A stretch of 64,000 nucleotides of DNA, from the NCBI GenBank assembly GCA_001799845.1, contig MGUG01000035.1, positions 717 through 64,716 of the forward strand, written 5' to 3'. This stretch comes from Elusimicrobia bacterium GWC2_64_44. Its GTDB lineage: Bacteria; Elusimicrobiota; Elusimicrobia; Elusimicrobiales; UBA9959. Position 1 is the first letter of the stretch; every line of letters starts with the position of its first letter. Shown here in pieces: positions 21,251 to 63,026 of this stretch. Under the pieces are notes generated by a model that made no database searches, had not been told where the DNA came from, and saw nothing but the letters and a program-made list of their open reading frames with translations. The translations under genes were made by a program, and so were the position numbers.

Positions 21251-21254
21251 CGTT

Positions 21255-21330: not shown

Positions 21331-21375
21331 TAACAATACGGCATTACAACGCTGTTACAGATTTACGGCATTAAT

Positions 21376-21403
21376 ATTATAGCAGATAATATGGGTTTGT
21401 CAA
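21376..21403 (-). promoter_or_regulatory. sigma70-type promoter A (TTGACA-16 nt-TGcTATAAT)
   Basis: On the minus strand the -35 is TTGACA (21403..21398), the spacer is 16 nt, and the extended -10 is TGC-TATAAT (-10 at 21381..21376). The same architecture and spacing occur at 63342..63369. Confidence 0.7.
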
Positions 21404-21409
21404 GGGGGA

Positions 21410-21712: not shown

Positions 21713-24700
21713 CTAGTGAATTACGCCCACCTTGCGCATGATGACCTTGCTGCCCTTGGGGCTGGAGGCCTTCACGCGCACTATATAGCCGCCCTTGCCC
21801 ACCACGCCGCCCAGGCCGTTCTTGCCGTCCCAGAGCACGTGGTTCGGGCCCAGCTGACCGCCGGGGCCGCCGCTGGAGAACTTGAATTCGCGCACCACGT
21901 AGCCCAGCAGGTCGTAGATCGTCAGCGTCACCTCGGCGTTATCGTTGAGGGTATAGGTCAGGTCGACGCGGCCTTCCACGCCGCCCTTGCGCAGGTCCAC
22001 CGGGTTCGGGTAGCTGGAGACCTTGGAGAGCAGCTCCTCGCCTATGGTCGTGCCGGCCGGGGTGGAGACCGTGGACCATTCCGAATGCTCGCCGGCGAAG
22101 TTCCAGCTGCGCACGCGATAGGCGTAATACTGGCCCAGCGGCCGCGGGGTCTCGCCGGGCACGCCCGGGTCGCCCACGGTATAGATGTTGTTCAGCGCGC
22201 CGCCGGTCTTGAAGCCCGGGATGGCGGCGATGGTCTTCCAGACGGGGCTCGTGCCCTCGCGCTCCTGGATCTCGTAGGACATGATATTGGACTCCAGGTC
22301 CTGCGCCTGGTTCCACTTCAGCGCGTAGGCCTGGCCGGAGGCCACGCCCTTGGCCACCTGCGGCTCCGGCGCCCCGGGCGTGGTCGGGTAAGTGGTGTCT
22401 ATGCGGTAGATCAGCACCGGCACGCCGTTCTCGCTGGGGATGTACTGGCCCGAGGCCATCAGGCCGCGCACGGAGATGACGTAGGCGCGGTCGGACACCG
22501 TCTCGCCCCAATAGGTATGCGGGCCCTTGAACGAGCCCTGCACGCCGCGCTCCACGATCTTGAAGGTCTTGGCGTCGAGCTTGTTGACCAGCATGATCTC
22601 GTTGCCCACGTAGGCGATGCCCTCCGCGGCGAAACCCTCCGTGGAGTCCACCGTGAACGAGGAGGAGTTAACCTCGATGCGGCTGATCAGCTTGGTGAAG
22701 TGGCCGGGCGACAGCGCCACATTGGTCACCTTGCCGGTCAGCGCGGTGCCCACGGTCTGCCAGGAATTCTTGATGCCGGTCGGCTCGGCGTAGTTGCCGC
22801 CCAGCGAGACCTCGTAGGAGACTACAGGGCCGGAGGCCGGGTTCCAGAGGGCCGTCAGCTCGGTCGTCCTGGCGGACCAGGCCGAGGGCACGGCGCCCAG
22901 CTCGGAAACGGCCAGTTCGACGCGGGAGTTCCTCACGTTGTCGCCTATGAAGTAGAGCGGCTTGCCGGTGCCGTCGTCCACGATGCGGTCGGACACGTAG
23001 TCGAGGTTGGTCTCGAAGTCCAGCAGCCCGTCGCCGTCTATGTCGAAGGTGGGCAGGCCGGAGTTGTTCAGCGTGACGTTGAGGCACTTGCCCGAGCCGT
23101 AGAAGTCGAAGTTATCGGGCCGGCCGTCGCCGTTGATATCTATCAGCGGCTCGTCGGCCTTGCAGCCCGAGGCGGTGTAATTGTAGATCCAGCCCTTCCA
23201 GCCGGCGGGCACGGCGCCGTAGGAGACGCTGGCCGTGTTGGCGATGGGCAGGTTGCCCGCGCCCAGCACCACGTTGCCGCTGGAGTCGGTCATCGCGTAG
23301 GCGGGGTAGCCGTTGGACGCCAGCATGATGTTCTTGTACACCGGCGTCAGCGGGATGACGGCCGGGGCGATCAGGACCTGGTTGGAGGTCATCGGGTAGC
23401 TGTCGGAGAAATTCTGGCCGGCGGCCAGCGGCAGCCCGCCCAGGCCGCGCATGTCGTTGAAGGTGCCCAGCGACAGGCTGGCCAGGTGCCCCAGGGTGTC
23501 CGCGCCGGAGAGGTCGGTGGAGGAGCTGACGTCGGCGGAGAGGTGCAGCACCAGCCCGCCGGTGGACACTATGACGTAAGGCAGGTTGCCGTCCATGATG
23601 GTGACCGTGACCTGGCTCTCGAAGGGGTTAGTGGCGGAATTCACCGCGTAGCCCAGGCGGTAGTCCGAGATCGGGCTGAACGCGCCGTCGCCGTCGTCCT
23701 TCCACAGCGAGACCACGGCCAGGTCGCCGTCGCCGTAGCCCGCGGTGGCGCTGCTGATGGAGCCCCCCTGCGTGAAGTTGATCTGGCCTATCGCCACGAA
23801 GTCCGAGAGGGTCTCCAGGTTGAAGCTCAGCATCGGCACGTTGCGGGTGTTCTTCTCGGCCGACTTGGGCGAGACATTGGTCCCCGAGACGGCCAGCGTG
23901 ATGGCGCGGATGGGCACCAGGCTGGAACTGAACGGATAGATGTCGCTGTAGTTGCCCTTGGGCAGCGCCTTCGTGATCCCGATATAGACCGTCGGGGAGA
24001 TGTCGTGCGGCGCGTTGACCGTGAGCCAGGACTTGTCACGGATCATCAGGCCGACCTTGTTGGCCTTGATGGCCATTTCGCCGATGTCATAGACGGCGAA
24101 GAAAGTCTGCGCCAGCGGGCTCAGCGTCTGCGTCTGCGACAGCGAGACCGTGATCTGGGTGTTCAGCGCGTTGTCCTGGTCGAACAGGTCCACCTTGCGC
24201 ACCCTGGCCCCGGCGGGATGGTTGATCAGCGGCGTAATGAAGTCGCCCAGTTTCTCGCCTCTCGAAGTCACGTTCAGGTACGGCTTGCCGGAACCGTCGA
24301 TGCCGGAGCCGGAGTAAGTGATCAGTTCGGCGTCGCTGACATAGAGGCGGCCGGAGACCGGGAAGCCCTTGGTGGACTCCAGGACCAGCTGGAACGGCAC
24401 CGTATCCGTGGAGGTGAACGGCCTGTAGAGGGTGCTCCTGGCCTCGGAGATGTTGACGTCGTTCACGTCGAGCATGTCGTTCTGGTTCGAGTCCTGGTAG
24501 ATGGACACGAACTTGACGTCGGTGTTCTTGCCGAACGGCGCGTTCGGGTCGTTGGAGGCGCCGGTGCGCTGCACCTTTACGGCGCTCCAGCGGGCGTTGC
24601 CGGCCTCGGTGGTCAGGTTGAAGCGCACCATCGGCACGCCCACCTGCGCCTGGCCTACGCCGCCGCCCTGCACCAGGTCGGCGGCCATGTCGTTGGCGCC

Positions 24701-27700: not shown

Positions 27701-30700
27701 CGGGTCCGTTATTTCCTTGTCGATGGCCTGGTCGAAGACCGTCGGGGTGCTCTCGTCCACCTCGAGGAAGAGGCGCACGCTCTTGAGGTCCTGGCCGGAG
27801 CCGGTGCCGGTCTTGATGATCTTGAACGACTTTATCGTACCCACGAAGTTGTCGGTCCAGGCCTCTATCTTCAGGAAGCCGGCGCGCTCCACGCTCTGCT
27901 CCACGTAGTTATACTGCGCCGCGTTGACGCCGGCCTGCCACCAGGCGCCGATATCGGTGCCCTTGACCAGCACGGTGGCGGGCTGGTTGCGCACCGGCGA
28001 GGTGGCGGTCTGGATCGGGAAGTTGTTGTAGGCCACGCCCACGAAGGTGGAGTTCAGCACCACGAACGACGGGTTGTTCATCACCAGCGCGAAGCTGCGC
28101 GGCGTGGCCGCCACGGTGGACATGCGTACCGCGAAGTAGAAGTTGCGCGGCGTGTTGGAGACGATGGCCGCGGTGGAGACCTTGGTGTTCAGGTCGTCGA
28201 ACCTCCAGCCCTGCAGGTCGGTGTCGTAGGTGCCGCTGGACATGAGGATGTCGGTGGGAGAACCGCCGAGCACCGCCTCGCCGTCGAAGACGCCCAGCTG
28301 GCCGGCCGTCTCGTTATCCTTGTACATGTTGATCTGGATAATGTCGGAGTAAGCCAGCGTGCCCGAGCTCTTGATCTGCACGGACTTCAGGTAGGCCGGC
28401 GGCGCGCCGGCCGGCGAGGTCTGCATGGTCAGGCGCAGCATGGGCACCGGGGCCGGGATGTCGGCTATCACGCCGTCGCCCTGGTAGATGGCGTACTTAT
28501 TGATGCCGATGGAGGTTTTGGAGACGGGCAGCGGGTCCTCGGGCGAGAAGTCGCGCGGAGTTATCACCAGGCCCGACAGCACCACGTCGCCGCTGGAGCC
28601 CTGCGGCAGGCCGCGCGCGCTGTCCAGGGTATAGCCGTAGATCTGCGTCTGGTGGTAGTCGGTCACGTTGACCTTCAGCGTTTCCACCATCGTGTCGTAG
28701 ACCATCAGCGTGCGCTCGCCCTGGTCGGCGGGGACGAAGATATAATCCGTGGTGTTGTTGATGTAGTCGCGCAGGTCGGCCGACCCCTTGGAGTTGGTCG
28801 TCATCTTTATCTTGCCGGTGTAGTACATGCCGTTGACCGGGTCGCCGGTGGCCACGTTGCCGAACTGGTCGCGGGCGCGCAGGATCAGCGAGCCCGGGGT
28901 CTGCACGCGCAGGGGGCTGGCGAGCGTGTAGCCATGGTGCAGCGTGAAGTAGGCCGCCGTGCTGGGCGTGATGTATTGCTCCTGGGAGATGGGCGCCAGG
29001 TTGACCCCGTAGGCGGCTATGAAGGAGTTGGCCGTGATCGGGGCGGTGCCCACGAGCTTGTCCCACACGTAAATATTGGCGAAAGAGTAGCCCGCCGGGA
29101 TGTCCAGGTCGAGCGGGTTGGTCTTCAGCAGCTTCCAGCTCGGGTTGGAGTCCAGCACGGGCGCGGCGGGGTCGATGCCGCCGAAAGTGGTATTGCGCGT
29201 GGACGAGAAGCGCACGCTGACCGGCGAATTGGTGGTCGTATTGTTCTCGAAGCTGTCCTTGAGCGCCACCGTCACCACGGTGGGCACGGTCACGCCGGTA
29301 ACGAAGTCGGCGTACTGCGTGGTGGTACCGGCTATCAGGCGGCGCGGCGGGGTGTAGAACATCACGTGGTCCGGGGGCGCGGGCACCACGGTATAGGAGG
29401 AGATGGCCGGCAGCCAGCCCTTGGGATAGGCGGGCAGGTTGTCCACCCGGAGCTGATGCGTCGTGGGCGAGACCAGCGTGTCCAGCAGGTAGAAGCTGGT
29501 GGAGGCCTGGCCCAGCGCCATGTTGGCCGTGCCGGGCTGCGGCGCGAAGGTGTCCTTGTCGGGCGCGGAGAACCTGACGTTGCCCAGGGAGGTGGACTCC
29601 AGGGAGAAAGTCACGCCCGCGCCCGCCGCATCCTCCTGGCCGCCTGCCACCGGGGTCGGGTTGCCGTAATGGTCCTCGATGGACAGCAGGAACATCTGCG
29701 AGGTCACGCCGGCGGTCAGCACCTGGCCCGCGTTGTAGCTGACGTTGATGCGGTAGGTCAGGTCGGGAACTATCACCACGGACTGGGTCGAGGCCGACCA
29801 GCCTTCGCGGTCCGGAACGGCGACCCTGATGACGGGCCGCACCGGAGCGGCGGAGGACGGATAGACGGTGGAAGCCGTGGTATCCATGTAATAGAAGGTC
29901 GTCATGAAGGCGTTCAGCGGGATGTCAACGTAGGACACCGTGGACGAGAAGACCGGCGGGAAGGCGCCGGACACCGTGCTGGAGGCCGAGAAGGAGAACG
30001 CGTCGTTGATCAGCGAGGACTGGCGGGTGAAGGTGGACAACACCACCTGCACCGGGGCGGTGGCCACGGAGGGGTTGGCGAACATATCGCGCAGTTCGGC
30101 CTTGAAGACCTGCACATCGCCGAACTTGTCGGTGATCTTGCCGGCCGTCATCGAGCGGGGATCGTTGCCGAAGGCCACCTGCGCCACCTGCGCCGGGTTG
30201 ACCCGCAGCTGGTGGATGGCCGGCTGCATGGAGCCGGACCGGGCCTCTATCTGCCAGTAGCCAGGCCTGTTGTCCTCGAAGGTGTTGGCGGCCGGCGAGG
30301 TGCCGGAATACGAGGAGGTCCTGTCGTGGTAGCGGAAGGACGCCCTGGTCTGGTTGGGCGGGATGATCACCGCGTTGATGAACTGGTCGTGCAGCACGGT
30401 GCGGAAGCCGTAGTCGCCCACGTTGCCGAAGGTGGCCATGGTCCGGCCGAGGCCGGTATGCACCGCCACCTGGGCCGCCGGGAGGCCCAGGTAGACGCCC
30501 GTCTCGCCCTGCTTGGTCACGTTGTCGAAGTCGTCGCGGCGCTCCACGGTGAAGAACGCGCCGGTGGCGCCCATTTCCTGGATGCCGACCAGGGCTTCCG
30601 TCTGGCTGGAGTAATAAACAAGCTTGGTCGGCGTGCCGCCGGTGGTGGTCAGCTGGCCGCTCAGGTTCTGGCGGGCGGCGGCGTAGGTGCCGTAGGAGGC

Positions 30701-33700
30701 CGGGTTCAGCGTGGTGGTGCCTAGCCAGACGCGGGCCCAGTCCCCCGCCTTGCTGGATACCTGGTAGGCGATCGGGGTAGAGAGGCCTACCCTGCCGTCC
30801 GAATCAGTATAGACCAGCGTGGAGACGCCCATGTCGATCCAGTTGGAGCCGCTCCTGTAGCGCACGCTGCCGGTGGAGCCGTAGACCTCTCCGATGGAGA
30901 CGTAGGCCGGCAGGCCCGCCGAGGAGATGCTGTTATTGAAGGCGTCGGTGAGCTGCGCCGTAAGCTGCTGTACGCCGGGCGCCAGCAGCGAGCCCGCCGG
31001 CACCTCTATGTCGGCGTCGGGCGAGACGGTATAGACCATCGGCGGGCCGGGGTTGACCTGCAGCGCCAGCGACGGGGTAACGCCGATGGCGGCGTTGAGC
31101 GAGTCGTGCGCGCCGATGGTGTCGGGGCCGGCCTTGCGCAGCGTGAACCAATTGACCAGGCTCTTAACGCCGTAATCCGCCGAAATGTAGCCGGTAACGG
31201 TGTCGGCCAGCGTCGGGTCCTGGATGGAGTTGACGCGGTCCGTCACCACGAAGGCCGCCGTGCCAAGATAGACGTTGGGGCCGGTGGAACAGATGTTGTT
31301 GTAATTATCCAGCACGTAAAGCTGGGCGGAGAAGGGCACGCCGGCCACCACTATCGTGGAGGCGACGACGAAGGACATGCTGACCGCCGGGCCGGGGTTG
31401 ACCGTCATCGTGGAGAGCCCGGTGGCGTAGTCAGCGGGCGAGGCCGGGGTGGTGGCGGCCATCACCGTGTAGCTGCTGATGGAGGTGCGGGCGTCCACCG
31501 CGAACACGGCGCTGCCGTTGGCCAGCGTCTGCGGGGCCGGGGCCAGGGGCTTCGGGTCGTTGGGCGTGGTGACGCGCACCTCGGGCATCACGGCGGGCGG
31601 GTTGGTATCCTGCGAGGGGCCGGAGCCTTCCGTGACCTTGTTGAAGAACAGGTCGGTCAGGAAAACGCCCGCGAACAGGGCCCCGGTGCCTATGGTGTGC
31701 TGGGAAGGCGGGCCGCTGCGGCCGGGCCAGGAGAGCGAGGAACTGCGGCACGGCGGGCTGACGGCGCACTTGCCCTCCGCCAGCGTCTGGCCGGGCAGCA
31801 CCACTTCCAGCCGCACGGCGGTGGAGGCGTAGACCTTGAAAGAGTCCCTGGCCGCCGTGTTGTCGTTGCGGCAGACGCCGCCCGGGTTGCCGAAGCAGAC
31901 GTAGTTGTCCCCCGCGTCCTGCGGGAAGACCTTGACCGAGGCGGCCGAAGTGCGGGTGACCAGGTTCAGCGGCAGCTGCTTGCTGCCGAAGTTCAGCGGC
32001 ACGCTGTCGGAATCGATGTCGTAAATGTCGGAGGTTACGAGGTACACCGTGGGACCCACCGACAGGTCCTGGTAGACGTTCATGTACTTGTCCACCAGGT
32101 TGATGGTGGCCGTGAAGCCGGTGCCGGCGGTCTGCGTGGAGGCCGCCAAAGACTTGCCGCTGGCCCCCGCCAGGTAATCGCCCGAGCCGGGCAGCGCTAT
32201 CTCTCCGGGCAGGATCAGCTGCAGGCCCACGGGGTCGGAGGGCCGCAGCGTGAACGTGGAGGATTTGGGATCGTCCACCAGGCCCGAGCCGCCGAAGTCC
32301 GTGGCGGACAGGTAATGGGTGGCCGCGCGGCGCATCGACAGGAAGATCAGGTCGGTATAGCCGTAGGTGGTGTTGACCGCCACGGTGGCCACCGAGGGGG
32401 CATAGGCGTCGGTGGGGGTGTTAAGTTTTACGTCCACCGGCCGGCCGGGCACCAGGTTGAAGTAATCGTCCACGACGCCGACGCGAACGCCGAATGTGCC
32501 GTCCACGGTCTGGGCCGAGGCCAGGCCGGTCTTGCCGTTGGAAGAGGACTGTCTGAAGCCCTCGCCCGGCAGCGTCAGCAGCAGGCGGCGCGGCACGCCG
32601 GGGCTCACGTTGACCACGCTGGTAAGGTCCTGGGCGAGCACGGGGCCGCCGGCCAGGCCCGGGGGAACGGTCTGCGCGGTAAGGGTGGTGGTGCCGGCCC
32701 GGATAGGCGTCACGCTGAAGGTCGCCGAGCCGGTCACGATCTGGGAAGCGGGCACGACTATGGCGGTCGGGTCGTCGGAGAGCAGGCGGATCTCCTGGCT
32801 GGCGCCGGGGGTCAGGTTCCAGAAAGCGTCGGTGATGTCCACCGTTACGGTGAAGGGCACGCCGGCCTGCTGCGCGGGGATCGGGCCGGTGCGGCCGTTG
32901 GTAGTGGACCCGGAGACCCGCGTCTCCACGGGCACCAGCGCGCGTATCCTGGTGGGCGTGTGAGGCACCAGCAGCAGGCCGCCGCTGACGGTGGTGCCGA
33001 GCGGCGGCACGGTGCCGCTGTTGTCGTTGACGGTGAGCGTCCTGGAGCCGGCCGTGCGCAGGAAGACGTTATTGATGGTGGCGCTGCCGTCCACCATGCT
33101 GTAGGCGTTGCCCAGCACGCCGTCGGCGGCGGGGCCGGCGAAGGTGTCGTTGGTAGTGACGCGCAGCGTCTTGTCGAGCGCGGCGTCGTCCACGCGGTTA
33201 TAGCGCGAGTCGGCCGCGTAGACCTGCGCGTCGAAGTAGACGCCGGCGGTCTGCGTGGAGATCTCGCCTTGCACGCCGAAGGGCGCGACCACCTTGCCGG
33301 GCACCAGGTACTGCGTGGGCAGCAGCACGATCAGGCGGGAGGCCGCGCCGGGCACTACCGTTATGTTGTAGTCGGTGCTGGTGGACAGCTTGGGCTCTAT
33401 CGTGTCGGCGTCGGCGGCGCTGATCACCAGGTTGGCGGTGGCCGCGCTGGGCAGGAAGCTCAGGATATCCGCCGAGCCGTTGGCCAGCGACTGGGCGGCG
33501 TGCGTGGACGCGTAGATGTCATTGGAGGTTATCTGTACGCGGCGGCCGTCGCTGACCAGGTTGCCGAAGTCGTCCACGGCGCGCACGGTGAGCGTATAGG
33601 TAGCGCCGGCTGTCAGAGGGCCGGCCGTGCCGGTCTTCCAGCCTATAGCGCCTTCGGAAGCCGCTTCGGTGGGCACCAGCAGCAGCAGGTGCCTGGCCGG

Positions 33701-48700: not shown

Positions 48701-51700
48701 CCCGGCTATGCTCCAGTACTTGCCGGCCTCGGCGCCGGCGGTCTGCTTAATGCGCACCTGGATATCGTAAACGCGCCCGTTGGGGCGGTCGAAGGAGCCG
48801 CCGGTGATCTTGCCGGTCTGGCTGATATAGCCGTTGTTGTACGGGTAGAAGATGGCCGCCGTCGGGCGCGTGACGTCGTAGATGAACGAGGATTTCAGCC
48901 CGTAGCCTTCCTGGTTAAGGGCGGCGTCGCCGGCGTTGGTACGCACGTAGAAGATCCTGCCGTCATTGCCCGCGAACATGGCCGGGTTGATGTCCCAGGT
49001 CCAGTTGGCGTAGGGAGAGTTGGCGCTGAGCTGCTGCGGCGTGGCGCTCCAGCCGTTGACGCCGTTCCAGTACCAGCCGTCGGAGTCGCGCGTAACGTAG
49101 AGGGACAGTTCCGAAACGCCGGAAGAGCCGGGGTCGTAGCTGGTGCCCTGCACCTGGCCCGGCAGCGTGTTGAGGTGCTGCGCTTCGGAAGGCACCGTAA
49201 CGGTGGAAACGGGGGCCTCGCTATCGTAGAGGAACGTCGCCGTGGTATAGACGGTGTCGTAGTTGCCGGTTATGTCTACCGCGCGGGCGCGGATGCGGTA
49301 GGAGGCGCCGCTGGTCCAGGTGGAATCCTGGATGTTATAGGACCAGGTGGAAGAGGTGGTCCAGACGGTCTCCGTGACGGGCAGCCAGGGCGCGGCGTTC
49401 TCCTGCGCGCCGGGCGCAGACCAGGGCGGGTTCAGCGCCGGGTTGTAGTATTTATTCAGCGAGGTCATGAACACCGTGATGCGGGTGCTGGCCACCTTCA
49501 GGTTGTCGCCGGAAGTACCGCCTATCACGGGCAGGCTGTTATAGCTGGGCAGCACCGGGGCGGTGAAGTAGCTGACCGGCTTCTCGTTGTCGTAGCGGAT
49601 CGTGACGCCGTTGGCGGGCGGCACGTCGGTATCCAGCGGCTGGCCGCTGTTGGGCCCGTATTCCGGGTTGAGCGCCAGGTCGTAGGAGAAGGGCACTATG
49701 CGGTACTGGGAATTCTGGTTCAGCGGGTTGGTCAGGTAAGTGACCATGCCGCTCGGCAGGGAATAGACGAATTTGCCGGTATTGATGCCAGTGGTGGTCA
49801 GGTTCGCCTCGTACCACTTCGGGTCGGTTCCGGTGAAGTCGGTGTCGTTCCACCACCCGAGCTCGGCGCCGGTCAGGCGCTTGAGGGCCACCTTCACGGT
49901 ATAGGTGCCCAGGTCGGCCCGGTAAGTGTCGGCGAAATCCGCGGCCGTGCCGAGGATCTGCGTGAAGCCCGTGGTATAGCCGGTCAGGGGATAGGTGATC
50001 GTGGAAGTAGGCGTGTTGAGGTCGTACTTCACGGTCACGGCGGAAGGCGCGGACTCGTTGCCGGCGAAGTCGACGGCCTTGGCCTCTATCTTGTACTGGC
50101 GGTTGCCGGAGAAGGTCAGGAAGGCGCTGTTGTAGGTCCAGTTCGCCGGGGCGCCCTGAGCCGCCAGCCAGAAAGGACAGGCCACGAAGAACGAGCCGTT
50201 AAAACAGGTGGTGTTGCCCAGGTCGGTGATCTGCAGAGTGACCCCGCTGACCTTGGCGTAGGTCTCGGCCTGGTCGTCCTGGTTGGACGTGCCGGCGAGA
50301 GGCGTGGAGAGTTTGATGCCGGAATAGGCGACGCCCTGCGCCGGGTGCGCGACGGCCACGTACGGCGCCACCGTGTCGTACACGAACGTGTAGGTGGAGT
50401 AGAGCGAGGAATAGTTGCCGGCGTAGTCCTTGCTGCGCACGTCGGCGGTATACGCTTTGTCGTCGACCAGGATAGACCCGGGCAGCGTGTAATACCAGGA
50501 GGTCGGCCCTTCTTTAGTCGTCTGTATCCAGGTCTCTACGGTCTCGGTCCAGGCGGAGCCGCTCCAGTAGCGGATGCCGGTGCCCGTGCCGGTGGAGAGC
50601 CGTATCTGCGTGAATTCGTGGCCGGCCAGGTCCGCGTTGGCGGTGCCGTAGATCGTGAAGGGCGTCTTCTGCGCCAGGGCCGTAGGGGAGGTGATCAGCA
50701 CCGCGGGCGGCGTGCCGTCCACTATGAAGGTCCTGGTGGTATAGGCCGTCTCCCAGTTGCCCTCCCCCCCGTCGTTGGGCAGGCGCGCGTCGTCCATGGC
50801 CCGGGCCTGCAGGCGGTACTCCCGGTCCTGGGCCGGCCAGTTTATCGCCGTGTAATAGTCCCATGACCAGCTGGGAGCCGCGCCGGAAAGGTCCGCGTCG
50901 GCCCAGGAAGTGACCTCGGTCACGGTCCAGGAACTGAAGGCGGCGCCGGTCCAGTAATAGGTGTCTCCGGACTGCAGGTAGCTGAGGCGCACCTGCACCG
51001 TATTCACGCCCGCGCTGGTGGAAGCGGGCAGGTCGAACGCGGAACCGCGGAAATACGAGCCGGCCTGGCCTATCGCGAGCGGGTGGTAGCGGCCGGTAAC
51101 CCCGCCGGCGTCGTCGACAGGGCGGGAGATGGAGGAACCGGGCTTTTCCTTGTCCACGCGGACGATGATGGAGGAGACGCCCACGCCGAACTGCGTCTGC
51201 AGGTTGCCGGCGGTATCGGAGGAACGGACCAGCACGAGGTAGTTGAAGCCGGAAGCGAAGTCGTCGTCGAGGCCGGCCGGGGCGTAGGCCCAGCTGGTGG
51301 CGTCCGGGGACAGGAAGCCGTTGGCGCCGGTGATCCTTATCCAGCTCGGGTTGTCGCCCGACACCGTGAAGTCGGAGCCGCTGTACCAGCGCTGCGGGTC
51401 GGCGTACTTGCGGATGGCGATGTCCACCGCGGCGTTGCTGTAGGCGTCCTGCGCGGTGCCGGAGAGGGCGGGCAGCGTGCGTACGCCGTTGCCGTTGGCG
51501 TCGCCGGGCGAGGAAATGCCCGCCGACGGAGGGGTCCTGTCCACCACTATGCGTTTGCCGATGCCGGGCGGGATATCGGCCGCCTGCGGCTCGCCGGAAT
51601 TGGGGCCGAACTCGCGGTTGCTGGCCAGGTCGTAGGACCACGGCACCAGCCAGTAAGCGACGCCCTCATTGGCGACAAGGTCCATCTCGGACTTCATGCC

Positions 51701-54700
51701 AGCCGGTAGAGTGTAGGTGAAGTTCACCGGGAAATTGCCGGCCGCCGTGTCGGTATAGGTCTCGTACCAGGCCGGCTGCACGCCGCCGAAGTCGGCGCCG
51801 TTCCACCAGCCCGCCGGCGCGCTCACGCGCATCACGGCTACCTTGACGGTATAGGTGCCCAGCTTGGCCTCGTAGGCGCGCCCGCCGTACTGTTCGTCCG
51901 TGGCCTGGCCGCGCAGCTGGCCGAAGCCGGTGGTAGAGCCCTGCAGCGGGTAATTTATGGTCGAGGTCGGACGCTCCAGGTCGTAATTGATGGTGGCGGT
52001 GACCGGCGCGGATTCGTTGCCGGCGAAGTCCACGGATTTGGCACGCACTATGTAGCGGTGGTCGTTGACAAAGACCAGGTCCGGGTCATTGAAGGTCCAG
52101 TTGGCCGGGTTGCCCTGCGCGCCTTGCCAGACGGGGCAGGGCGAGAAGCCGGCGCCGTTGAAGCAGCCCGGGGCCGTCAGGTCTTCTACCTGCACCGTCA
52201 CCGTGCTGACAAGCGAGTAGGGATCCGTCTGATCGGCCTGGTCGGAGGCGCCGACGGCTTCGGTGGAGAGCTTGACGTGCGAGTAAGTCCCTCCTTCGGC
52301 CGGATGCGACATCGAGACATGGGGCGCGACGTCGTCGAAGGTGAAGTTATAGGTCGAATAGAGCGTCGAGTAATTGCCGGCGCTGTCGAGAGTGCGGGCC
52401 TCGGCGGCATACGGCATGTCGCTGGCCAGCATGGCGCCGGGCAGGGTGTAATACCAGGAGGTAGACCCCTGCTTGACGGACTGGATCCAGGCCGCGGGAT
52501 CGTTGCCGTCGGCGGTCCAGCCGGCGCCGGACCAGTAGCGGGTGTTCACGCCGGAACCGGTGGAAACGCGCACGTAGGTCTTATCGTGGCCGGACTTGTC
52601 CGCGTTGGCGGTACCGTAGATGGTGAAAACGGCCCGCTGCGCCGGAGCGGTGGGCGAGGTGACCAGCACCGCCGGCGGGGTGGTGTCGAGCACTACCTCG
52701 TAAACGGTGCCGAAGGCGCCGGAATTCTGCGGCACGGCGTTGTCTATGCCGCGCACGGCCACCATGTATTTCTGGTCCGAATAGAAGTTCGCCGAAGGCA
52801 GGGTATAGTCCCAGTTCGGAGGCGTAAAGGCGTCCGGCTGGAAATCGGAAGGCGTGGAAGACCAGGAGAGGCCCGTCCAGTAATAGGTAGTGCTGCCCTC
52901 CAGCCTGCCTATCTGCACCCGCAGGTTGGCTACGCTGTCGACCCCGGCCGGGGTATCCGAGGCGAGGCCGCTTATGGTCCAGGCGGACCCCGGGTTCACG
53001 CTGCCGTTCCCGTCGCCGTCCTCATAGCCGGTTATCGACGCCGCCGGCGGCTGCACGTCCCAGACCATGGTGAACGAGGATTCGTCGAGCACGTAGGTTT
53101 GCTGGGTGTTGCCCTGCGGGAGCGCGGTGTCGCGGGCCCGCACGCGCAGTATGTACGAATAGCCCTGCGTGAAGGCGGCCGGCGGCGGCAGGAGCGAGTG
53201 GGTCCAGGAAGAGATCGCAAGGCCGGGCGCGTGGATGGTGGAAGTGCCCCAGTAGACTTCTGCCTCCTGCGTCTGGGCAGCGTCCCAGGTACCGGTGTTC
53301 CACTTCCAGTAGCGCAGCGCGTCGCTGCCCTGCGCGGGCCGCTTGATATGCACCAGCACCTTGTCCAGTTTGCCGACGGCGCCGCCGGGGCCGGCCACGT
53401 CCCAGGCTGTGCCGTGCAGCGCGTCCAGCGAGGACCGGACATTGCCGCTGACCGCGGTGACGGTGGAGTTGACGGCGATATAATCGTCGAGCTGCGCCAC
53501 CGGCGAACTGCGGTCCACGATGAAATCCACCGCCGCGCCCAACTGCTGGTTGGTGGCCCGGTCGCTGGCCCTGGGCGTAATGCGGTAGCTGCCGCCGTCG
53601 GTCCAGGCCGGCAGGTTCACGCCGAGCGACCAGACCGTGCCGGCCACGGTAGTAGTGGACCAGACTATGCTGTCCTGCCACGCGGTGGTGACCGGGTTCC
53701 AGTAGGTGGTGGACTGCGACAGGTCCTGTATGGCTATCTCGCTCTTGTCCAGCAGGCCGGGCGAGACGTCCGAGACGGCGCCGGACAGCTGCGGCAGGCG
53801 CTGGTAGATCAGCGCGGCCGGCACGCCCACGGCTATCGAGGGCGGCGTCGCGTCATAGACTACGGTATTGCCCACCAGGTCTATAAGCTGCTCCTCGCCG
53901 GCGGTGCCGTAACCCTTGGAGAGGAAGTAGTAGGAGGTATTGTCGGTCCAGGCCTCCGTGGAAATGTTCGTATCCCAGTCCCAGTACAGGCTCGAGTCGC
54001 CCAGGATGGAGACGTTGGAGGCGTTATGGTACGCGCGCGGGGCGGCTTCCGCGGAACCCGGGGCGGAGAAGGAGCTGCCGTACCAGTAATAACCGTCGGT
54101 CTTGCGCTCCACGGAAACCTTCACGCTGGAGACCGTGGAGAAAGTGAACTTGGAGGCGCCGCCGGATACCACCTGGGGTTTCGCCTTCATGTGAGAGGTG
54201 TTCGCCGGCGCGCTGATCCAGGTGCCGGGGTACGGCGCGGTGTAGTACATGTTCTTGCGCCAGACCGTGGACTCGGTGTTATTGGCCTTGTCGCGGGCGT
54301 GGGCGCGCACCGAGTACCAAGCGTTGTTCCATTGCCAGACGGTATCGGGCACGTCGTAGGACCAGTTCCCGCCGGTTATGGTCACCGAGGAGACCGGCAC
54401 CCACGAGGTGGAATTATTCTGCCAGCTCTGGCCGTCGTAGGTCCAGGTGATGGCGCCGCCCTGGCCGCTGGGGCTGTAGCCGAACTGCAGGAGGATATTG
54501 TTCAGTTCGCCCGGCGCGGCGTCGAACGCGGTGCCGGTGACCTGCGGCAGCGGGATCTCGCCGTAGGAAAGCCCTTCGCCGGGCACGGAGATGGTGGACG
54601 AGGGCGCGGTAAAGTCGGCCTTGATGGCGGTGACCGTGGAATAGACCGGCTCGGCATTGCCGGCGCGGTCCATGGCGTACGAGTTCATCTCGTAGGTCTC

Positions 54701-57700
54701 GCCGGACTGCCAGGGCGTGGTAGCAAGCTGCCACCAGGTGGCGGAGGGGCTCAGCGTGCCGTAAGAGGTAACGCTGTTCCAGACCTCGGGCGAATTTTCC
54801 ACGGTCCAGCTGGAATCGGACACGCGCCAGTAATGGTCGGCCTTGGGGCCGGTCAGCTGCTTAATGCGCAGCTTGATCTCAGTGGTCACGCCGAAGGGTT
54901 TGTCGTAGGCCTCGCCCGTCACCTTGCCGGTCTGGCTGATATAGCCGTTATTGTACGGGTAGGTGATGGTATTGGTCGGGCTCGTGACGTCGTAGACGAA
55001 GGTGGACTTGACCGAGGGTGTTTCCTGGTTGGTCGCGCGGTCGGTGGCCCAGGAGGTGACCGTGTACTGCTCGCCGTCTATATAGGCGGCCTCGCCGTCC
55101 ACCAGGTAGGTCCAGTTGGCGTAAGGCGGCGAGCCGGGCAGAGGCTGCGCCGGGCCCCAGCCGATACCGTTCCAGTAGTCGCCGTTGGACTTGCGCAGGT
55201 AGAACTTAAGGTCGTTAACCCCGGAGAAAGCGTCCGAGGTGGAGCCCAGCAGGGTTATCTGCTTGGCGGCCAGCGGCAGGTGGGCGTTGTTGGCCGGGTA
55301 CGAAACCGCGGAGCCGGGGATCTCCGTGTCGAACTGGAACGTGGCGGTGGCATAGGTCACGTCCCAGTTGCCGTACTCGTCGCGGGACCTGACGCGGACG
55401 CGGTAATTAGCGCCGCTGGTCCAGGAGGAGTCCTCTATGGTGTAAGTCCAGGTGGCGGAGGTGTCCCAGACCGTCACCTGAGGAGTTATCCACGGGGCGT
55501 CGTTGTCCGAGGCGCAGGTAGTGTCGTTCCAGGCCCCGCTCAGCGCCGGGTCATAGCACTTGCCCTGGTTATAGTTCATCATGCTGAACTGCACGGCGTT
55601 GGCGCCGGAGTTATCGTCGGCGTAGCCGGACAGGGTAGTAAGCGTCCTGTAGGCGACGGCCGACGGCGAGGTAATGACGCTGACCGGCCGCTGGTTCAGG
55701 AAGTCACGGGTGGAATACACCACCGAGTAGTTGCCGGCGTAATCCAGCGCGCGCGCGGATACAGTATAAGTGGCCTTCTCCACCAGCATGGACGGGGAAA
55801 CGGTGTAGTACCAGGAGGTCGGCCCCATCCTGAAGGAGTCGTTCCAGGTTTCAGGCTCGGTAACCCACTGGGTCAGCGCGGCGCTCCAGTAGCGCGTGGT
55901 GCCGCCGGTGCCGGTGGAAATGCGCACCTGCGTCTTGCGGAAACCGGCTATGTCCCCGTCGGCGCTGCCGTAGATATTGGTGTTGGCGTTCAGCGACAGC
56001 TCCGTCGGCGTGGTGATGGCCACGGCGGGCGGCGTGTCGTCGACAATAAAGCGCTTCGTGTTGGCGCCGGTGACGGCCGTCTCCCAGTTGCCGTCGGTGC
56101 CGCCGTTGTAGGGGCGCGCGGCGTCCATGGAGCGGCTTTCCAGCTTGTACTCCCTGTCCCCCGCGGGCCAAATGATATCGGTGGGATACAGCCAGGAACC
56201 GGAGCCGGAGGCGTCCCTCCACGACACGGAACCCGCGGCGGTGCCGGAGCTGAAGACGGCGCCCACCCAGTACCAGGTGTCGTTGGAGAGCAGGTAGGAC
56301 AGGCGGATCTGGCTCTTCTCCACGCCGGCGTTGTTGGCGGCGTAGAAATTATCCAGCGCCCCGCCGTAGAAGCGGGAAGAGGTGCCGGACTTGCCGATAC
56401 TGGCGGATTTGTAGCGGCCGCTCTCGCCGTCGCCGTAGTCGGCCGGCAGCGTGATCGAGGTTGCCGGCGGCTGCTTGTCCACGTAGATCACGCGCGACGA
56501 GATATTTACGGCCAGGTCCTCCTGGATATTGCCGGCCACGTCGGTGGAGCGCACCAGTATCAGGTACTTGAGGCCGCCGGTCATGGCGGTGTCGAGGCCG
56601 GCCGGGACATAGGCCCAGCTGGTGGCGTCCGGTGACAGGAAACTGCCGCCGCCGGCCACGTCCCGCCAAACCGGCTCGGCCTGCAGAGAGTTAAAGCCGG
56701 CGCCGTCGTACCAGAGCTGCGGGCTGCCCCACTGGTGCACGGCTATCTGCACGCCTTCGTTGCGGCCGTTGTCCGAGGCCGTACCGGAGATCTGCGGCAG
56801 GGCGCTGACGCCGGAGGCGCCTGTGGGCAGCAGTATCCTGGCCGTCGGCGAGGCGGTGTCAATGGTGAACTGCTGGTAAGGCGCCGGGAAATATTTGGCG
56901 CGGTTGGCCTTGTCCGTAATGCGTGCCTGCACCTCGTAGGTGCGGCTGTTCTCAAAAACCGGCAGGCCGGTGTTGAGATACCAGTATTCCAGCGCGGAAT
57001 CGAAAGCCCCGTCGTCGGCCACGGTCTGGAGCCAGGTCACGGAAGCCTCCCAGCTGTCGCCGTCCCAATAGTAGGTGCCGGCCAGCGTGGAGATGGCCAC
57101 CTCGACGTTCTGCACCTTGCCCTCGCCGGAGTCGCTGGCGGTACCGTAGATGGAAGGCAGGCTGCGCTCGTACACGGCGTTGGGCTCCACCAGGGTGCTG
57201 GCCGGGTCGTCGCCGTCGATATAGAAATAGCGCTCGGAGAACGGCGTGAGCTCCAGCGTGGCGTCGGCGGCCGCGCGCACCTTCAGGCTGAAGCTGTTGG
57301 TGCCGGCGGGCCAGATGCCGGTGATGTTCTTTGACCATAGCCCGCCGCCCACGCTGTCCACGCCGAAGTAACCGCACGAGGCAACGCCGACTTCGTAGGA
57401 CTCGTCGGTGCAGCCGGCGAGGTAGGTGGCGGTGGAGATCCAGCCGCCCGGGGTCCAGACCTGGTCAGGCTCGGCGGTAAGGTTGGTGATCATCACCTGC
57501 GCCGTAGTGGCGGCGGCCAGGGAGCCGTTTATAAAGCTCAGGTCCGCGGGCCTGTAATACGGGATGCCTCCGAGGGGCACGGATATGGACGAGTCCGGCA
57601 TCGGCGTTATCTTGTTTATCCTTATCAGGGCGGAGCCGGTGGGCGGCGTGGTAAAACCGGCGTAGCCGGGGAAGGTGGTCTTGTTCCCGACGGCGTCCAT

Positions 57701-60700
57701 CGCGCGAGCGAAGACCAGGTAGGTAAGGCCGTTCTCCAGGACCGGGATGCTGGACCCCGTCACGGTCCACTGCACCGGCGTGGCGGTATTGGTGGAAGCT
57801 TCCACGAAGGCCGTGTCCGGCGGCGGGTTGACGTCGTCGCCTACGTCGAAGGTGCCGACGGAGGCCGGGTTCCACCACTTGCGGGCCGTAAGGCTGAAAT
57901 AGGCCACGTGGACGTGCTTGATGGCCGTGTAGGAGTCCTGGGCCGTGCCGGCCACGGTGTCGAGCACGTAGACATTCTCGGAGGCCGGCTGCTGTATCAG
58001 CGCGGCCGGGGTGCTCTTGTCCACTTTAAAGGTGTTGCGGTTGCGGCCCTGCACAAAGATGGCTTCGACATTGGGTTTTGGCCCGTTGTCTTTATCCAGC
58101 GCGCTGTCCATGGAGCGGACACGCACGTGGTAGGAGCGGCCGTCCGCGGCCGCCGCGAACAGCGAGGCCGTATTGTAGGAATAGGTGCTGTCGGCGACGT
58201 TGGGCATGTCCTTCCAGGTGGCCGCCGAGCCGCAGGTGCCGGAATAGTCGGTGCCGTTCCAGCAGGTGTTCTCAAGGTCGTCGCGGATCTCCACCTGCAT
58301 GCCGCTGACGCTGCCGCCGGAGGCCAGGCCCGCGAGCGGCAGGTCGGTGGCGGTGCCTAGCACGGAGGCCAGCTGGTAGCCGGGCTGGTTGCTGTACCAG
58401 TTGTCGTTGAGCGGGCTCAGCAGCGTGGAAGTGGGCGGCTGCACCTCGTAGCGGAAAGAGAGCTTCAGCGTTTCGGAGGAGCCCTTGTTGCGGTAGTCCT
58501 CGTCGGGCAGGTCCACGTTGTCCTGCGACCAGGCGTAGACCAGGAACTCGTCGGCCGTGGGCACCGGCACCGGCGGGTGGCCGGGGTAATCCACGTCGGA
58601 CCAGAAGCCGCCCATGCTCTGGTGGGCCCAGTCCAGCGCCGGGGCCTGGCAAGAGTCGTCGCGCTCGTTCTGGGGCATCCAGCCGGTGCCTGTGCCGGTC
58701 CACCATTTCAGGTCCGACAGGCGCTGCACGCCTATGCAGGTCAGGTTCAGGCCGGCCTGGCGCGTGGTATCAGGCATGTCCTTGGCCGTGCCGGCGATGT
58801 TGGTGAGCTCGGTGTCCGAATAAGTGCCGCCGGGCAGCGGGTTAAGCACCTCGGTGGCCGGCGGCGTGGCGTCGTACTTGAAGACCACGGTGGAATAGAC
58901 GGTGGCGTAGTTGAGCGCCTTGTCCCGGGACTTCGCCACCAGGGTGTATTCCTCGCCACTGGTCCACTTGGCGGCCTCCTGTGTTTCGGAGGACTGCCAG
59001 ACATCGAAGGGGACGGTGGTGGTGGTGGCCGCCAGGTTCCATATAGAATCGGTCTGGGACACCCAGTTCTTAAGCGGCTTGCTCCACTTGGAGAGGTTTT
59101 CCGGGAATTCGAGCGAATACTCCACGCTGCCCACGCGCGAGATGGGGTCGTTGGAGGTGCCGATGAGCGCGGTCAGGGAGCCCAGGCCGTACTTGCCGCC
59201 GCTCACGGGGAACTGGATCTTGTTGGTAGGGGCGGTGCCGTCGTAGTAGAAGTAGCCGCTGGTGGCAGGGGAGAGCGCGGTGCCGGTGGAATTGCCGGCT
59301 GCGTCCTCGGCGTAAAGCGCCACGCTGTACCAGTAGCCGTCCTGCCAGTTGGTGGAGATGGCGATGCTGTAGCCGAACGGGTCTCCGGCGGGGGCGTACT
59401 GCGCCGAGGCGAACGTCGGCGCCGGCGAGGCGCAGGCCGAACCCCACTTGGTGCCGCCGCCCTGCTCGTAGACGCAGTAGCGCACCCAGCGCTTGCCTAT
59501 GACGGGGTCCACCACGTTGTCGGTGATGGCGCCCTCCAGCAGCGTCACGGAGTTCTTCCAGACGTTGGCGGGGTCGGCCAAGCTTACCGGGCCCTCCGGA
59601 TAGTCCATCGGGTCCATCAGGGGGCTCGGGCTGGTGACCGTCACGGTGGGCGCGCTCAGGTCGTAATAGAACTCGCGGTTGCTGCTGGCCGAACCCTGCG
59701 AGAAATAGTCGCCCTGGCGCTGCGCGATGCGGTACTTGCGGCCGTCGGTGAAAGTGGGCAGCTTGGCGTGCAGCACATTGTCCGGCACGCTCTTGACTAT
59801 GGTATCTATATTCTTATAGGTACACTCCGTGCCGCAGGAGAACTTGGTGATCTCTCCGGGCGGAGACGGGATCTTGACCATGTAGTACCAGGTGGCGGCG
59901 GCCTGGAAACCTGTGGCTGTAAAACCGGTCCAGTACTGGTCGTTCAGGTCGAAAACATTGTCCACGGAATCGCGCAGCTGCATCTCTATGTACTTGATGC
60001 CGGAGGCCGTGTCGGTGGATTTGCCCTGTATATAGGGTATGCTTTTTTTGCTGGAGTTGGCTTCGGGGAAAGAGAAGTTGCCGTCCGAAGGGGTCTTGTC
60101 CACCGTGAAGACCACGGGGTTGGACGGCGAGCCGAAGCCGCGGTCGTTGGTGCGGCCGCGCGACTCTATCTGGAAAGTCTGGCCACTGGCCTGGGCTACC
60201 GCGTCGTTGTACCAGCCGGTATGGGTCCAGCTCGCGACGCCGCCGGTGACCTGTATCCACTGCTGGCCGTAAACGCCGGGGTCTATATAGGCGTCGGCGC
60301 CGTTCCACTGGAAACCTGCCTGGGCGCCGCTGAGCAGCGTCACCCGCACCTGCGGGGCTATGGACGCCTGGCCCGCGGCAGGGGCGAAGCTGGCCGTGCC
60401 GGTTATGGAGGCGATACCGCTGGAATAGGAAATCGGCTCTACCGGGTAAGTAAGTTCCGAAGAGGGCACCGTGACGGTGGCGATGCCCACCTTTAGCACC
60501 TCGCGGGCGTCGTAGTTGATGACGCGCATGTCCATCGGTCCGGCGGAGACGGACTGGTCCACAGTGAAGTGGACGCTGACGGTGACGCTGGTAACGCCTA
60601 TCGGGGTCATGCTGGTGACGGTGACGCCGTCCAGCGGTTCCCCGTTGCGCTCGAAAGAGAGCGAGGGCGTCGGGTTATTGAAGAGGTTGGTGCCTGTCAG

Positions 60701-62737: not shown

Positions 62738-62806
62738 AGGCAAACAAAAAACGACCAGACCTTGCCCAGGCGTTTTTTTCCAGGGGCAAAGCACGGATAT
62801 TAAACC

Positions 62807-62834
62807 ATTATAATATAAATTAATTGTTTCGCAA
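62807..62834 (-). promoter_or_regulatory. possible proximal promoter (TTGCGA-16 nt-TATAAT) in an AT-rich patch
   Basis: On the minus strand the -35 is TTGCGA (62834..62829) and the -10 is TATAAT (62812..62807). The AT-rich context could produce this by chance. Confidence 0.3.
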
Positions 62835-62951
62835 ACGTTAAACGCGCGTGAACGACCGCCGGATACAATACAGCATCCTTCTCCCCTTCCGGGCAGACCG
62901 CCATAATATCCACGCGCCGTCACGGCTCTGGACATTTCGCCTCCCAGGCCC

Positions 62952-63026
62952 AAAAAAAGGGCCGTTTCTGCTCTCTTCGCCTCAACCCGGTTCTGGGCTG
63001 ATACCCCGAAGACAGCGGAAACGGCC
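62952..63026 (-). terminator. terminator-like hairpin about 50 nt downstream of aptamer B (candidate expression platform)
   Basis: On the minus-strand RNA, GGCCGUUUC (63026..63018) pairs with GAAACGGCC (62968..62960). C-U7 follows immediately (62959..62952). The enclosed loop of about 49 nt may add further pairs. Confidence 0.4.

Follow-up and report, generated by a model that had tools for sequence, protein, structure and literature searches.

A 13,461-residue candidate fibrillar adhesin encoded beside a PorV-like barrel and orphan flagellar motor genes in a groundwater Elusimicrobiota bacterium

Introduction

What kind of structure might a bacterium build from a single gene of 40.4 kb, and what could hold the product at the cell surface? 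The question is raised by a stretch of 64,000 nucleotides from Elusimicrobia bacterium GWC2_64_44 (Elusimicrobiales; assembly GCA_001799845.1, contig MGUG01000035.1, positions 717 to 64,716), referred to here at its full length as the window, in which one giant open reading frame (ORF) occupies 21713..62098 on the minus strand, starts with an ATG codon, and encodes a protein of 13,461 aa (1,436.6 kDa; isoelectric point (pI) 4.7). The answer that we favour, and consider probable though well short of certain, is that the giant ORF encodes a polar fibrillar cell-surface adhesin of groundwater Elusimicrobiota, whose C-terminal domain (CTD) is held on a PorV-like barrel encoded by the adjacent gene.

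The proposed arrangement would work in four steps. A Sec signal peptide, read from the sequence, would export the giant protein across the inner membrane, whereupon a PorV/PorQ-family barrel would recognise the basic CTD, of the FlgD_ig/type IX secretion system (T9SS) type, and carry or anchor it such that the C-terminus lies proximal to the cell; this second step is modelled on the PorV-cargo, PorQ-PorZ and SprF-SprB pairs. Approximately 90-100 tandem beta-sandwich domains, comprising 65 Ig-like units, about 17 units of a second family and a chunkier third block, would then form a thin stalk, and an N-terminal propeller at the distal tip would serve as the ligand-binding end. Given a rise per domain like that of the adhesin MpIBP, the stalk would reach a length of several hundred nanometres.

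Giant Ig-repeat adhesins are already known as a kind, and Elusimicrobia are known to be among the phyla rich in huge proteins. What is new is the build, in which a Sec signal, an N-terminal-tip propeller of an uncharacterised family, and a T9SS-style CTD with a cognate PorV-TPR protein are combined outside the Bacteroidota. Also new are the replacement of giant alleles between strains, and the recurrent linkage of the giant gene to an orphan FliG/FlbD/MotAB cluster.

An uninterrupted gene of 40.4 kb

The giant ORF is a real, uninterrupted gene. The only stop in its translation is the terminal one, and there are no Ns anywhere in the window; given a frequency of about 2.5% stops per random codon at 65% GC, a stop-free run of 13,461 codons is expected by chance with a probability of about e^-341. 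The GC content at the three codon positions is 0.57/0.51/0.90, the same pattern as in neighbouring real genes, and the long ORFs that the plus strand carries here, of up to 3,002 aa, are antisense shadows cast by a gene rich in GC at third codon positions (GC3). A preliminary description of this DNA, made from the letters alone, had reported a single 40.4-kb ORF of 13,461 aa, and the ORF listing, an independent translation and codon-position GC all bear this out, the coding strand, which it left unstated, being the minus strand. The predicted protein is acidic, with abundant Ala, Thr, Ser, Gly and Val, and contains 0.3% Cys.

The contrary explanation is that the ORF is an artefact, either a misassembly through chimeric joining or collapse, or a pseudogene made open by polishing, and that no 13,461-aa product exists. 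The suspicion has some grounds, as the sequence comes from a short-read metagenome context in which related contigs often end within or near the giant gene; for instance, the European Nucleotide Archive contig L003, 100% identical to window 12991-21427, ends at 21427. In addition, the retrieved relatives of the C-terminal 1,200 aa are all short, the named ones being labelled 'partial', as are the named N-terminal relatives, exact 50-mers from the middle and 5' part of the giant gene found no match in JGI metagenome contigs, and one related contig around this locus is itself probably chimeric (L002, described below). However, the gene offers 40,383 stop-free nucleotides with uniform coding statistics and no long repeats of high identity. 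Its internal DNA repeats reach at most about 78% identity over at most 236 nt, the exceptions being a few 45-51-nt motifs at 88-91%, and Tandem Repeats Finder reports no array in the gene, so that collapse of repeats during assembly is unlikely. Independent assemblies also argue for the gene: an N-terminal fragment of 970 aa from a JGI assembly (P0121) is identical to the giant protein, contig L003 agrees fully with the window up to its end at 21427, and orthologues of 16,125, 12,671 and 10,786 aa from other assemblies have their parts arranged alike along the C-terminal ~2,600 aa. For two of these three, the last ~2,600 aa are collinear with the giant protein at 59-77% identity, whereas the third shows 71% identity across most of this region and 46% over its last ~740 aa. 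An artefactual origin is thus, in our estimation, extremely improbable.

The N-terminal propeller head

The N-terminus of the giant protein carries a predicted Sec-type signal peptide (aa 1-36; 61991..62098, minus strand), with a K-rich n-region, the h-region LAAALLLALPAL, and cleavage predicted between AGA and AD. It is followed by a beta-propeller head (aa 37-442; 60773..61990, minus strand) with a lectin/sialidase-like fold, as judged by AlphaFold2 (AF2) modelling and Foldseek searches. The AF2 model, built on a 15-sequence alignment, is all-beta with approximately 26 strands, a predicted local distance difference test (pLDDT) of 81.5 and a predicted template modelling score (pTM) of 0.85. 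The best Foldseek matches are the seven-bladed Photorhabdus lectins PLL/PHL (E down to 2e-11; template modelling score on the target, TMt, 0.65-0.75) and CV39L of Chromobacterium, and six-bladed sialidases and fungal fucose lectins rank after the seven-bladed lectins. The weak call of an N-terminal beta-propeller in the preliminary description was right at the level of the fold. The Asp-box label that accompanied the call was not sustained, because no BNR/Asp-box match appears in Pfam at E<=5, and a motif search of the head finds neither the canonical S-x-D-x-G-x-[TS]-W Asp-box nor the R-[IL]-P (RIP) motif. The lectins and sialidases that share the overall fold of the head are free soluble proteins, whereas the propeller here would be the tip of a 1.4-MDa fibre and is without their canonical motifs.

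The head is a rare, uncharacterised family without a Pfam model. No match to it was found in Pfam (E<=5), NCBIfam, or PDB sequence and profile searches, and when 1.84 billion cluster representatives were scanned in full with HMMER, only 17 relatives emerged, none of which has a Pfam match in the head domain. In every one of them the domain is N-terminal, located at residue ~37-80. Relatives with source names are mostly 'partial' proteins from Elusimicrobia metagenome-assembled genomes (MAGs); a few come from archaeal MAGs, on short contigs, an attribution that is probably due to mis-binning.

A sialidase-like fold at the tip of a fibre could also be taken to suggest an organelle for attack or attachment in a bacterium that lives as an epibiont or predator, where the fibre would tether the small cell to its host or prey and the propeller, instead of being a lectin, would act as a sialidase-like glycosidase on the envelope of the partner. 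Sialidases are indeed among the structural neighbours of the head, the hypervariability of the giant gene (see below) fits an arms race, and many of the related MAGs stem from 0.1-0.2 um groundwater filtrates, according to their record titles. Moreover, Elusimicrobia are among the phyla enriched in huge proteins, and this enrichment has been tied to host association (PMC11573180). A similar role has been proposed for the giant genes of Omnitrophota, which are likewise very large ORFs of small-celled, uncultivated groundwater lineages (bioRxiv 10.1101/2023.11.21.568195); that work makes no mention of MotA, FliG, PorV or T9SS, and Elusimicrobia enter it merely as a download set. The giant protein differs from the Omnitrophota products in that no cell-wall-degrading domains were found in its 13,461 aa, and Pfam scans of the whole length likewise returned no other envelope-degrading domain. 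Given in addition that the head is without a RIP motif, a canonical Asp-box, or a match to a BNR or glycosidase hidden Markov model (HMM), and that lectins rank above sialidases in the fold search, an enzymatic organelle of predation is improbable. For the adhesin that we favour, the modelled fold suggests that the ligand of the propeller is probably a glycan.

Three repeat blocks form the predicted stalk

Between the head and the first repeat lies a linker (aa 443-557; 60428..60772, minus strand) of unconfirmed family, whose first residues (aa 443-460, at the end of the head model) have pLDDT values below 50. This linker is the 'IPT/TIG-like' unit of the preliminary description, which had also named Big_1-like units in the second repeat block and an FN3 domain before the CTD. 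Pfam searches of the giant protein, cut both into 1,000-aa tiles and into ten dissected segments, gave almost nothing above threshold, and for this reason IPT/TIG, Big_1, FN3 and Asp-box are not taken as family assignments; even at E<=5 there is no match to TIG, Big_1 or fn3. The larger claim, that of an ordered, polar architecture with three distinct repeat blocks, fared better, since profile-profile comparison (hhalign) of the first two blocks, A and B, yields a probability of only 4%, and they are therefore regarded as distinct families.

Block A (aa 558-8964; 35207..60427, minus strand) consists of 65 tandem Ig-like extender units, delimited with an HMM built from the protein itself. The units have a mean length of 129 aa, a mean pairwise identity of 23% (maximum 58%), and the consensus ..GTA.D....V.V......YW.G..W....W.......W.Y.......G..Y.V.A.A.D.AGN.....F..D...P. 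A few segmental duplications are evident (at offsets of 5, 11, 14, 16 and 25 units), and a strict super-repeat is absent. Pfam matches are weak, to Big_13/Big_3, with Big_13 reaching 31.5 bits in one tile. A 35-unit profile searched against the PDB, however, matches adhesin extender domains, namely MpIBP RII (4p99, E=2.8e-11), SiiE (2yn3, E=1.6e-7) and an RTX adhesin (5irb, E=6e-4), in agreement with the Ig-like D-x-AGN stalk originally described.

Block B (aa 9041-11160; 28619..34978, minus strand) is a second beta-sandwich family, with nine clear units of ~122 aa (aa 9041-10159) followed by ~7-8 degenerate units bearing a D-x-[YF]-x-N strand motif. There are 12 copies of this motif within aa 9,001-11,200, a single one within aa 1-9,000, and none further towards the C-terminus. 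The block B profile finds only monobody noise in the PDB, and the sole hint from Pfam is Invasin_D3 (E=0.1). Block C (aa 11200-12830; 23609..28501, minus strand) contains seven copies of a ~85-aa domain set among other beta segments at an irregular spacing of 175-345 aa. Each copy has a loop resembling VW(K/R)D-x-(N/D)-x-(N/D)G, of the type (W/Y)-x-D-x-(N/D)-x-(N/D)-G, and the part of the block that was modelled (aa 12262-12830) is all-beta. The D-x-N-type loop assigned to this region at the outset is thus present, but the regular module of ~200 aa is not.

The overall plan recalls that of the BIg-repeat adhesins, represented by MpIBP of Marinomonas primoryensis, SiiE of Salmonella, and proteins of the LapA/FrhA type. 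Common to all is a megadalton fibre with tens of extenders of ~100-130 aa, a D-x-AGN / D-x-T-P motif, and one or more ligand-binding domains at one end. In RTX adhesins it is the N-terminus that is retained, and the ligand-binding modules lie near the C-terminus. The giant protein has the opposite polarity, with an N-terminal head, a C-terminal sorting domain and a Sec signal peptide, and its block A units are longer (129 aa vs ~104 aa). Assignment as an RTX adhesin exported by a type I secretion system (T1SS) was rejected, as the protein has no GGxGxD motif and no HemolysinCabind match, and the window holds no T1SS genes.

Repeats of this kind might alternatively provide bulk and spacing in a structural envelope or matrix protein (a sheath, an S-layer-like coat, or a biofilm scaffold) that has no specific ligand. 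The acidic, Ser/Thr/Ala/Gly-rich and Cys-poor composition is in keeping with such a role, and coat proteins also make use of beta-sandwich repeats. Nevertheless, a 1.4-MDa protein would be a costly coat subunit, and the closest sequence relatives of the repeats are extender domains of adhesins. That one end bears a single differentiated head and the opposite end a sorting domain points to a polar fibre rather than a lattice former, and a structural coat is accordingly given very little credence.

The C-terminal domain and its putative partner

A unique region (aa 12831-13365; 22004..23608, minus strand) separates block C from the CTD. It includes two D-x-D-G-D-G loops (aa 12985-13030) with weak FG-GAP, Dockerin and EF-hand matches (E=0.015-0.2), and an FN3-like beta-sandwich at approximately aa 13245-13350 that is seen in the AF2 model and in Foldseek matches to tandem FN3 domains. 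The model of the last 1,200 aa, based on 18 sequences, has a pLDDT of 63 and is all-beta, with several domains at 70-89. Foldseek aligns it with tandem FN3/Ig chains, phage tail-tip proteins and PorU, in keeping with the favoured adhesin, although the FN3/Ig matches are generic and do not discriminate between individual domains.

The CTD itself (aa 13366-13461; 21716..22003, minus strand) has an FlgD_ig fold of the sorting type and is basic (pI 9.7) within an acidic protein. It scores 28.4 bits against FlgD_ig, just above the gathering cutoff (GA) of 27, upholding the FlgD_ig-type CTD of the preliminary description, and lies at the extreme C-terminus, where residues 1117-1198 of the model form seven strands with pLDDT ~70-82. 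The CTD is also the most conserved 96 aa of the giant protein. Among divergent alleles it retains 56-88% identity where the preceding ~2,200 aa fall to 27-43%, and an HMM of the CTD scores 137-176 bits in all orthologues. Such strong conservation points to a conserved binding partner.

A candidate for this partner is encoded by the next gene downstream, PorV-TPR (19634..21250, minus strand), which specifies a PorV/PorQ-family outer-membrane beta-barrel with a C-terminal TPR domain (NF033709, 111.2 bits vs a cutoff of 90). Its true start is probably Met22 at 21187, because a signal peptide follows this internal Met. In searches of the PDB, the sole match outside the TPR is a weak one, to PorV of Flavobacterium johnsoniae (6h3i_F, E=0.079). 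Together with CTD conservation, the neighbouring barrel gene supports the earlier proposal that the C-terminus is the sorted end. From adjacency, CTD conservation and the family match we infer, by analogy with known pairs, that the CTD docks on the PorV-like barrel.

One such pair is SprB/SprF of F. johnsoniae, where the gliding adhesin SprB is a T9SS cargo, SprF is its PorP-like partner and the genes are arranged as sprCDBF. Like the giant protein, SprB is a huge repeat adhesin that ends in a sorting domain and whose gene immediately precedes that of a dedicated barrel of the PorP/PorQ/PorV kind. The giant differs in belonging to another phylum and in having a CTD of FlgD_ig/type-A-like character, whereas that of SprB is type B; a scan of the C-terminal 794 aa with NCBIfam gave no match to the type B model TIGR04131. 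Likewise, the adjacent barrel is of the PorV/PorQ family rather than PorP, and is fused to a TPR. In the SprB system, a motor of the 5:2 type driven by the proton-motive force (PMF) belongs to the same genome region or pathway (PMC9143113, PMC8986121). The genes neighbouring the giant encode flagellar-type MotAB and a FliG-like protein in place of the GldLM motor, and neither GldK/N nor SprA is found in the window.

A second comparison is with T9SS type A cargo and the PorV shuttle of Bacteroidota, which share with the present system a C-terminal Ig-like beta-sandwich of ~90 aa and a PorV/PorQ-family protein. In this case the differences bear on the interpretation, and several observations weigh against a sorting-domain adhesin held by PorV. 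The CTD falls below the cutoffs of the T9SS sorting models (TIGR04183, 17 vs 23 bits; PF18962, 12.8 vs 27 bits), so that 'T9SS-like', as the CTD was first described, does not hold at the level of the family. The T9SS is regarded as a system of Bacteroidota/FCB, the remaining T9SS components are not known in Elusimicrobiota, and none of SprA, PorK/L/M/N or PorU is encoded within the 64-kb window. At the other end of the protein, sequence identity between the head and its structural neighbours is only 9-13%, and ~10-12% for the lectins. Furthermore, a paralogue of the giant protein, P0138, is located away from any PorV-TPR gene, and 17 of 50 comparable loci have PorV-TPR without a giant gene upstream. 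Because the sorting models do not reach their cutoffs and no T9SS core is visible, the giant protein is described here as working like a CTD-sorted adhesin, and not as a T9SS substrate.

The locus counts derive from a scan of a genome collection that yielded 129 relatives of the FliG-TPR protein encoded next to PorV-TPR. Linkage was counted in a non-redundant set of 50 loci, each reaching 7 kb or more upstream; an ORF that continued past the boundary of the locus was scored as a giant orthologue, and L011 was left out owing to contig-end rearrangements. In 33 of the 50, including two lineages in which FliG identity is down to 44-46%, the gene immediately upstream of PorV-TPR is a giant orthologue. 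The 17 loci without a giant gene imply that the barrel is not exclusively dedicated to giant cargo. In one of these 17, L009, the second gene upstream of PorV-TPR encodes a 1,678-aa FN3 protein that also has a related CTD (36.8 bits) at its end.

Sensor nucleotide cyclases recur next to genes for giant-type CTD proteins. In L009, an sCache-HAMP-guanylate-cyclase gene (6312-7724) lies between the 1,678-aa CTD protein and PorV-TPR, and in L091 a CHASE2-guanylate-cyclase gene (5764-7893) is situated two genes downstream of the paralogue P0138.

A separate case is the JGI contig Ga0103682_10003042 (L002), which appeared to be a FliG locus lacking PorV-TPR and the giant gene. It was set aside as a probable assembly chimera with a duplicated 77-nt junction; the duplicated segment (9735-9811) joins unrelated genes to FliG-TPR (9812-12033), and contigs near the locus need to be treated with care.

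Replacement of giant alleles between strains

Comparison of the window with L001 reveals an abrupt change in relatedness. The motor-like gene cluster downstream of the giant gene is 98.5% identical at the nucleotide level, whereas the giant gene is ~79% identical or unalignable, with the breakpoint (window 21468 / L001 7775) in the spacer just past the giant stop codon. The L001 allele encodes 16,125 aa, and is thus 2,664 aa longer than the 13,461-aa allele. Differences in length among alleles (10,786-16,125 aa) are located N-terminal to the collinear C-terminal ~2,600 aa. Taken with the conservation of the CTD, the break in identity suggests that the giant gene is a hypervariable, exchangeable surface-protein locus built on a conserved sorting domain. 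That the stalk and head evolve fast and pass between strains accords with a structure exposed at the surface and subject to diversifying selection.

A conserved cluster of orphan motor genes

PorV-TPR is the first of seven genes (window 12090-21250, minus strand) whose order is PorV-TPR, FliG-TPR, coiled-coil, FlbD, MotA, MotB, lipoprotein. Among loci L001-L090, nearly all those of sufficient length keep this order, a few showing local variants, at FliG identities of 43-96%. The best 80 of the 129 FliG-TPR relatives all come from Elusimicrobiota or from unclassified 'bacterium' MAGs. The preliminary description mentioned neither this conserved neighbourhood nor the source organism nor the hypervariability of the giant gene.

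The second gene (17291..19243, minus strand) encodes FliG_MC-TPR, a predicted membrane-anchored, FliG-like protein of 650 aa that matches FliG-MC of T. maritima (1lkv, E=9e-33). It shares the FliG_M and FliG_C folds with flagellar FliG, but where the latter has FliG_N it carries a signal peptide, a periplasmic domain and a transmembrane (TM) helix, and a TPR is added C-terminally. In order, the protein comprises the signal peptide, a conserved periplasmic domain of ~190 aa, the TM helix (aa 212-235), an acidic/Gly linker, FliG_M, FliG_C and the TPR; the single TM helix is invariant across relatives. Against TIGR00207 it scores 113.6 bits (cutoff 226.7), aligning only from model position 112 onward. 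EDPW replaces EHPQ, and MSSGAVNAIKEIMEYSGNVT replaces MSKRAAALLKDELEYMGPVR, leaving one of the four canonical torque-helix charges and a changed EHPQR motif; other charges in the helix, K481, E482 and E485, are invariant within the phylum. A FliF-like ring was considered for the periplasmic domain and dropped, since a profile of the domain found nothing in the PDB and no FliF similarity.

The product of the third gene (14768..17128, minus strand) is 786 aa long and has a Pro-rich N-terminus followed by a long coiled coil, with neither a TM helix nor a Pfam match. Of the loci that reach sufficiently far past FliG-TPR, only one does not keep this gene in its position. FlbD (74 aa; 14455..14679, minus strand) precedes MotA (13654..14439, minus strand), an arrangement also seen in Firmicutes and spirochaete operons. 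MotA is a flagellar-type MotA/PomA stator A subunit (C. sporogenes MotA, 8ucs, E=3e-50, 174 bits) that has K/E at the R90/E98 positions, retains the prolines of both TM3 and TM4, and includes the motifs KAKKDG..SLE, APAFG and FMPMG. MotB (12844..13635, minus strand) possesses a plug, the YADLMT Asp, and an OmpA-like peptidoglycan-binding domain. The functional residues of MotA and the plug and Asp of MotB are thus shared with flagellar stators, although the MotAB scores stay below the equivalog cutoffs (235 vs 394 bits). The conserved last gene of the cluster encodes a lipoprotein of 249 aa with an LAGC lipobox (12090..12839, minus strand). A Zorya anti-phage system was rejected as an explanation for MotAB, as PADLOC detected no ZorA for MotA or any neighbour and gave just generic ZorB matches to MotB. 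No other flagellar genes, T1SS genes or Gld genes are present in the 64-kb window.

The recurrence of this cluster next to the giant gene suggests an extension that is compatible with the anchored adhesin, namely that the giant protein is the output of an undescribed, Elusimicrobiota-specific, envelope-spanning machine. Stators of the MotA5B2 type would turn or push a ring of membrane-anchored FliG_MC-TPR, a reuse of the rotor-stator pair without a flagellum, and the periplasmic domain of FliG, the lipoprotein, and the periplasmic TPR of PorV-TPR would pass PMF-derived force to the barrel anchor. The outcome might be movement of the adhesin along the surface (gliding), motor-assisted secretion, or the tensioning or retraction of a 1.4-MDa protein.

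The seven-gene synteny across Elusimicrobiota and the adjacent giant in 33 of 50 loci are consistent with such a machine. The topology also fits, with FliG_MC cytoplasmic like the loop of MotA and one TM helix leading to the conserved periplasmic domain, as do the intact MotA charged pair, both prolines and the MotB Asp, and the fact that the barrel and the FliG-like protein each bear a TPR arm. There is an analogy with SprB, which is moved by the GldLM/T9SS motor (PMC8986121). Orphan genes of this type have been reported before, in that most free-living Elusimicrobiota are without flagellar structural genes yet retain motAB, flbD and fliG, whose role was called 'unclear' (bioRxiv 10.1101/2022.07.08.499144); literature searches found no description of the seven-gene cluster, nor of giant proteins linked to FliG, MotAB or PorV in Elusimicrobia.

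Against a motor-driven fibre stands, first, the fact that adjacency is its sole link to the giant gene, and that the cluster occurs without a giant gene upstream in the remaining 17 loci. Second, the ~460-nt spacer between the giant gene and PorV-TPR contains a sigma-70-like promoter (21376..21403, minus strand) that matches TTGACA-16-TATAAT at 12/12 positions, has an extended -10 TG, and falls within the stretch that is 98.5% identical to L001. Promoter-like sites number 4 per 800 nt upstream of PorV-TPR vs 0.5 expected, and with a consensus promoter in between, the giant gene and the cluster are probably separate transcripts. Third, three of the four canonical FliG torque-helix charges and the EHPQR motif are changed, and profile searches detect no similarity of the periplasmic domain to FliF or any solved structure. 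A motor-coupled fibre is accordingly regarded as a tentative proposal, and on balance an unlikely one.

Other genes of the window

Upstream of the giant gene is a gene for a HEAT-repeat (HEAT_2) protein (62105..62953, minus strand), whose stop codon lies 6 nt before the giant ATG in the same frame. Given this spacing, the two genes are probably co-transcribed. The ORFs are separated by only a single TAA and two codons, but a fusion is unlikely, because relatives that reach the giant N-terminus all start with their own signal peptide.

Beyond the lipoprotein gene, a 635-aa HEAT-repeat protein is encoded at 10000-11907 (minus strand); its N-terminus includes a hydrophobic segment, and its C-terminal domain is OmpL47-type/Big_13-like. 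The GC content of this gene (54.6%; GC3 0.54) is far below the 65% of its surroundings. L006, L007 and L009 do not have it between their lipoprotein gene and mnmA, and it is therefore probably a recent insertion. Two further ORFs, at 5738-7747 (plus strand, 669 aa) and 4759-5625 (minus strand, 288 aa), are GC3-rich and have no Pfam match; an unannotated ORF of 617 aa, similar in size to these ORFs, adjoins ddl in L006.

Implications

Even on its own, the giant protein gives the class of megadalton fibrillar adhesins a further member whose build has been dissected in detail. The replacement of giant alleles at the level of strains marks strong diversifying selection in these ultra-small groundwater bacteria, for instance by phage, grazers or partner specificity. 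The neighbourhood provides a candidate function for orphan flagellar motor genes, as the giant adhesin is the most frequent upstream neighbour of the cluster. If the giant protein is indeed coupled to the motor, this would explain the 'enigmatic' orphan motAB, flbD and fliG genes of non-flagellated Elusimicrobiota, and may represent a third way, after flagella and GldLM/T9SS, to couple a 5:2 ion motor to a surface structure.

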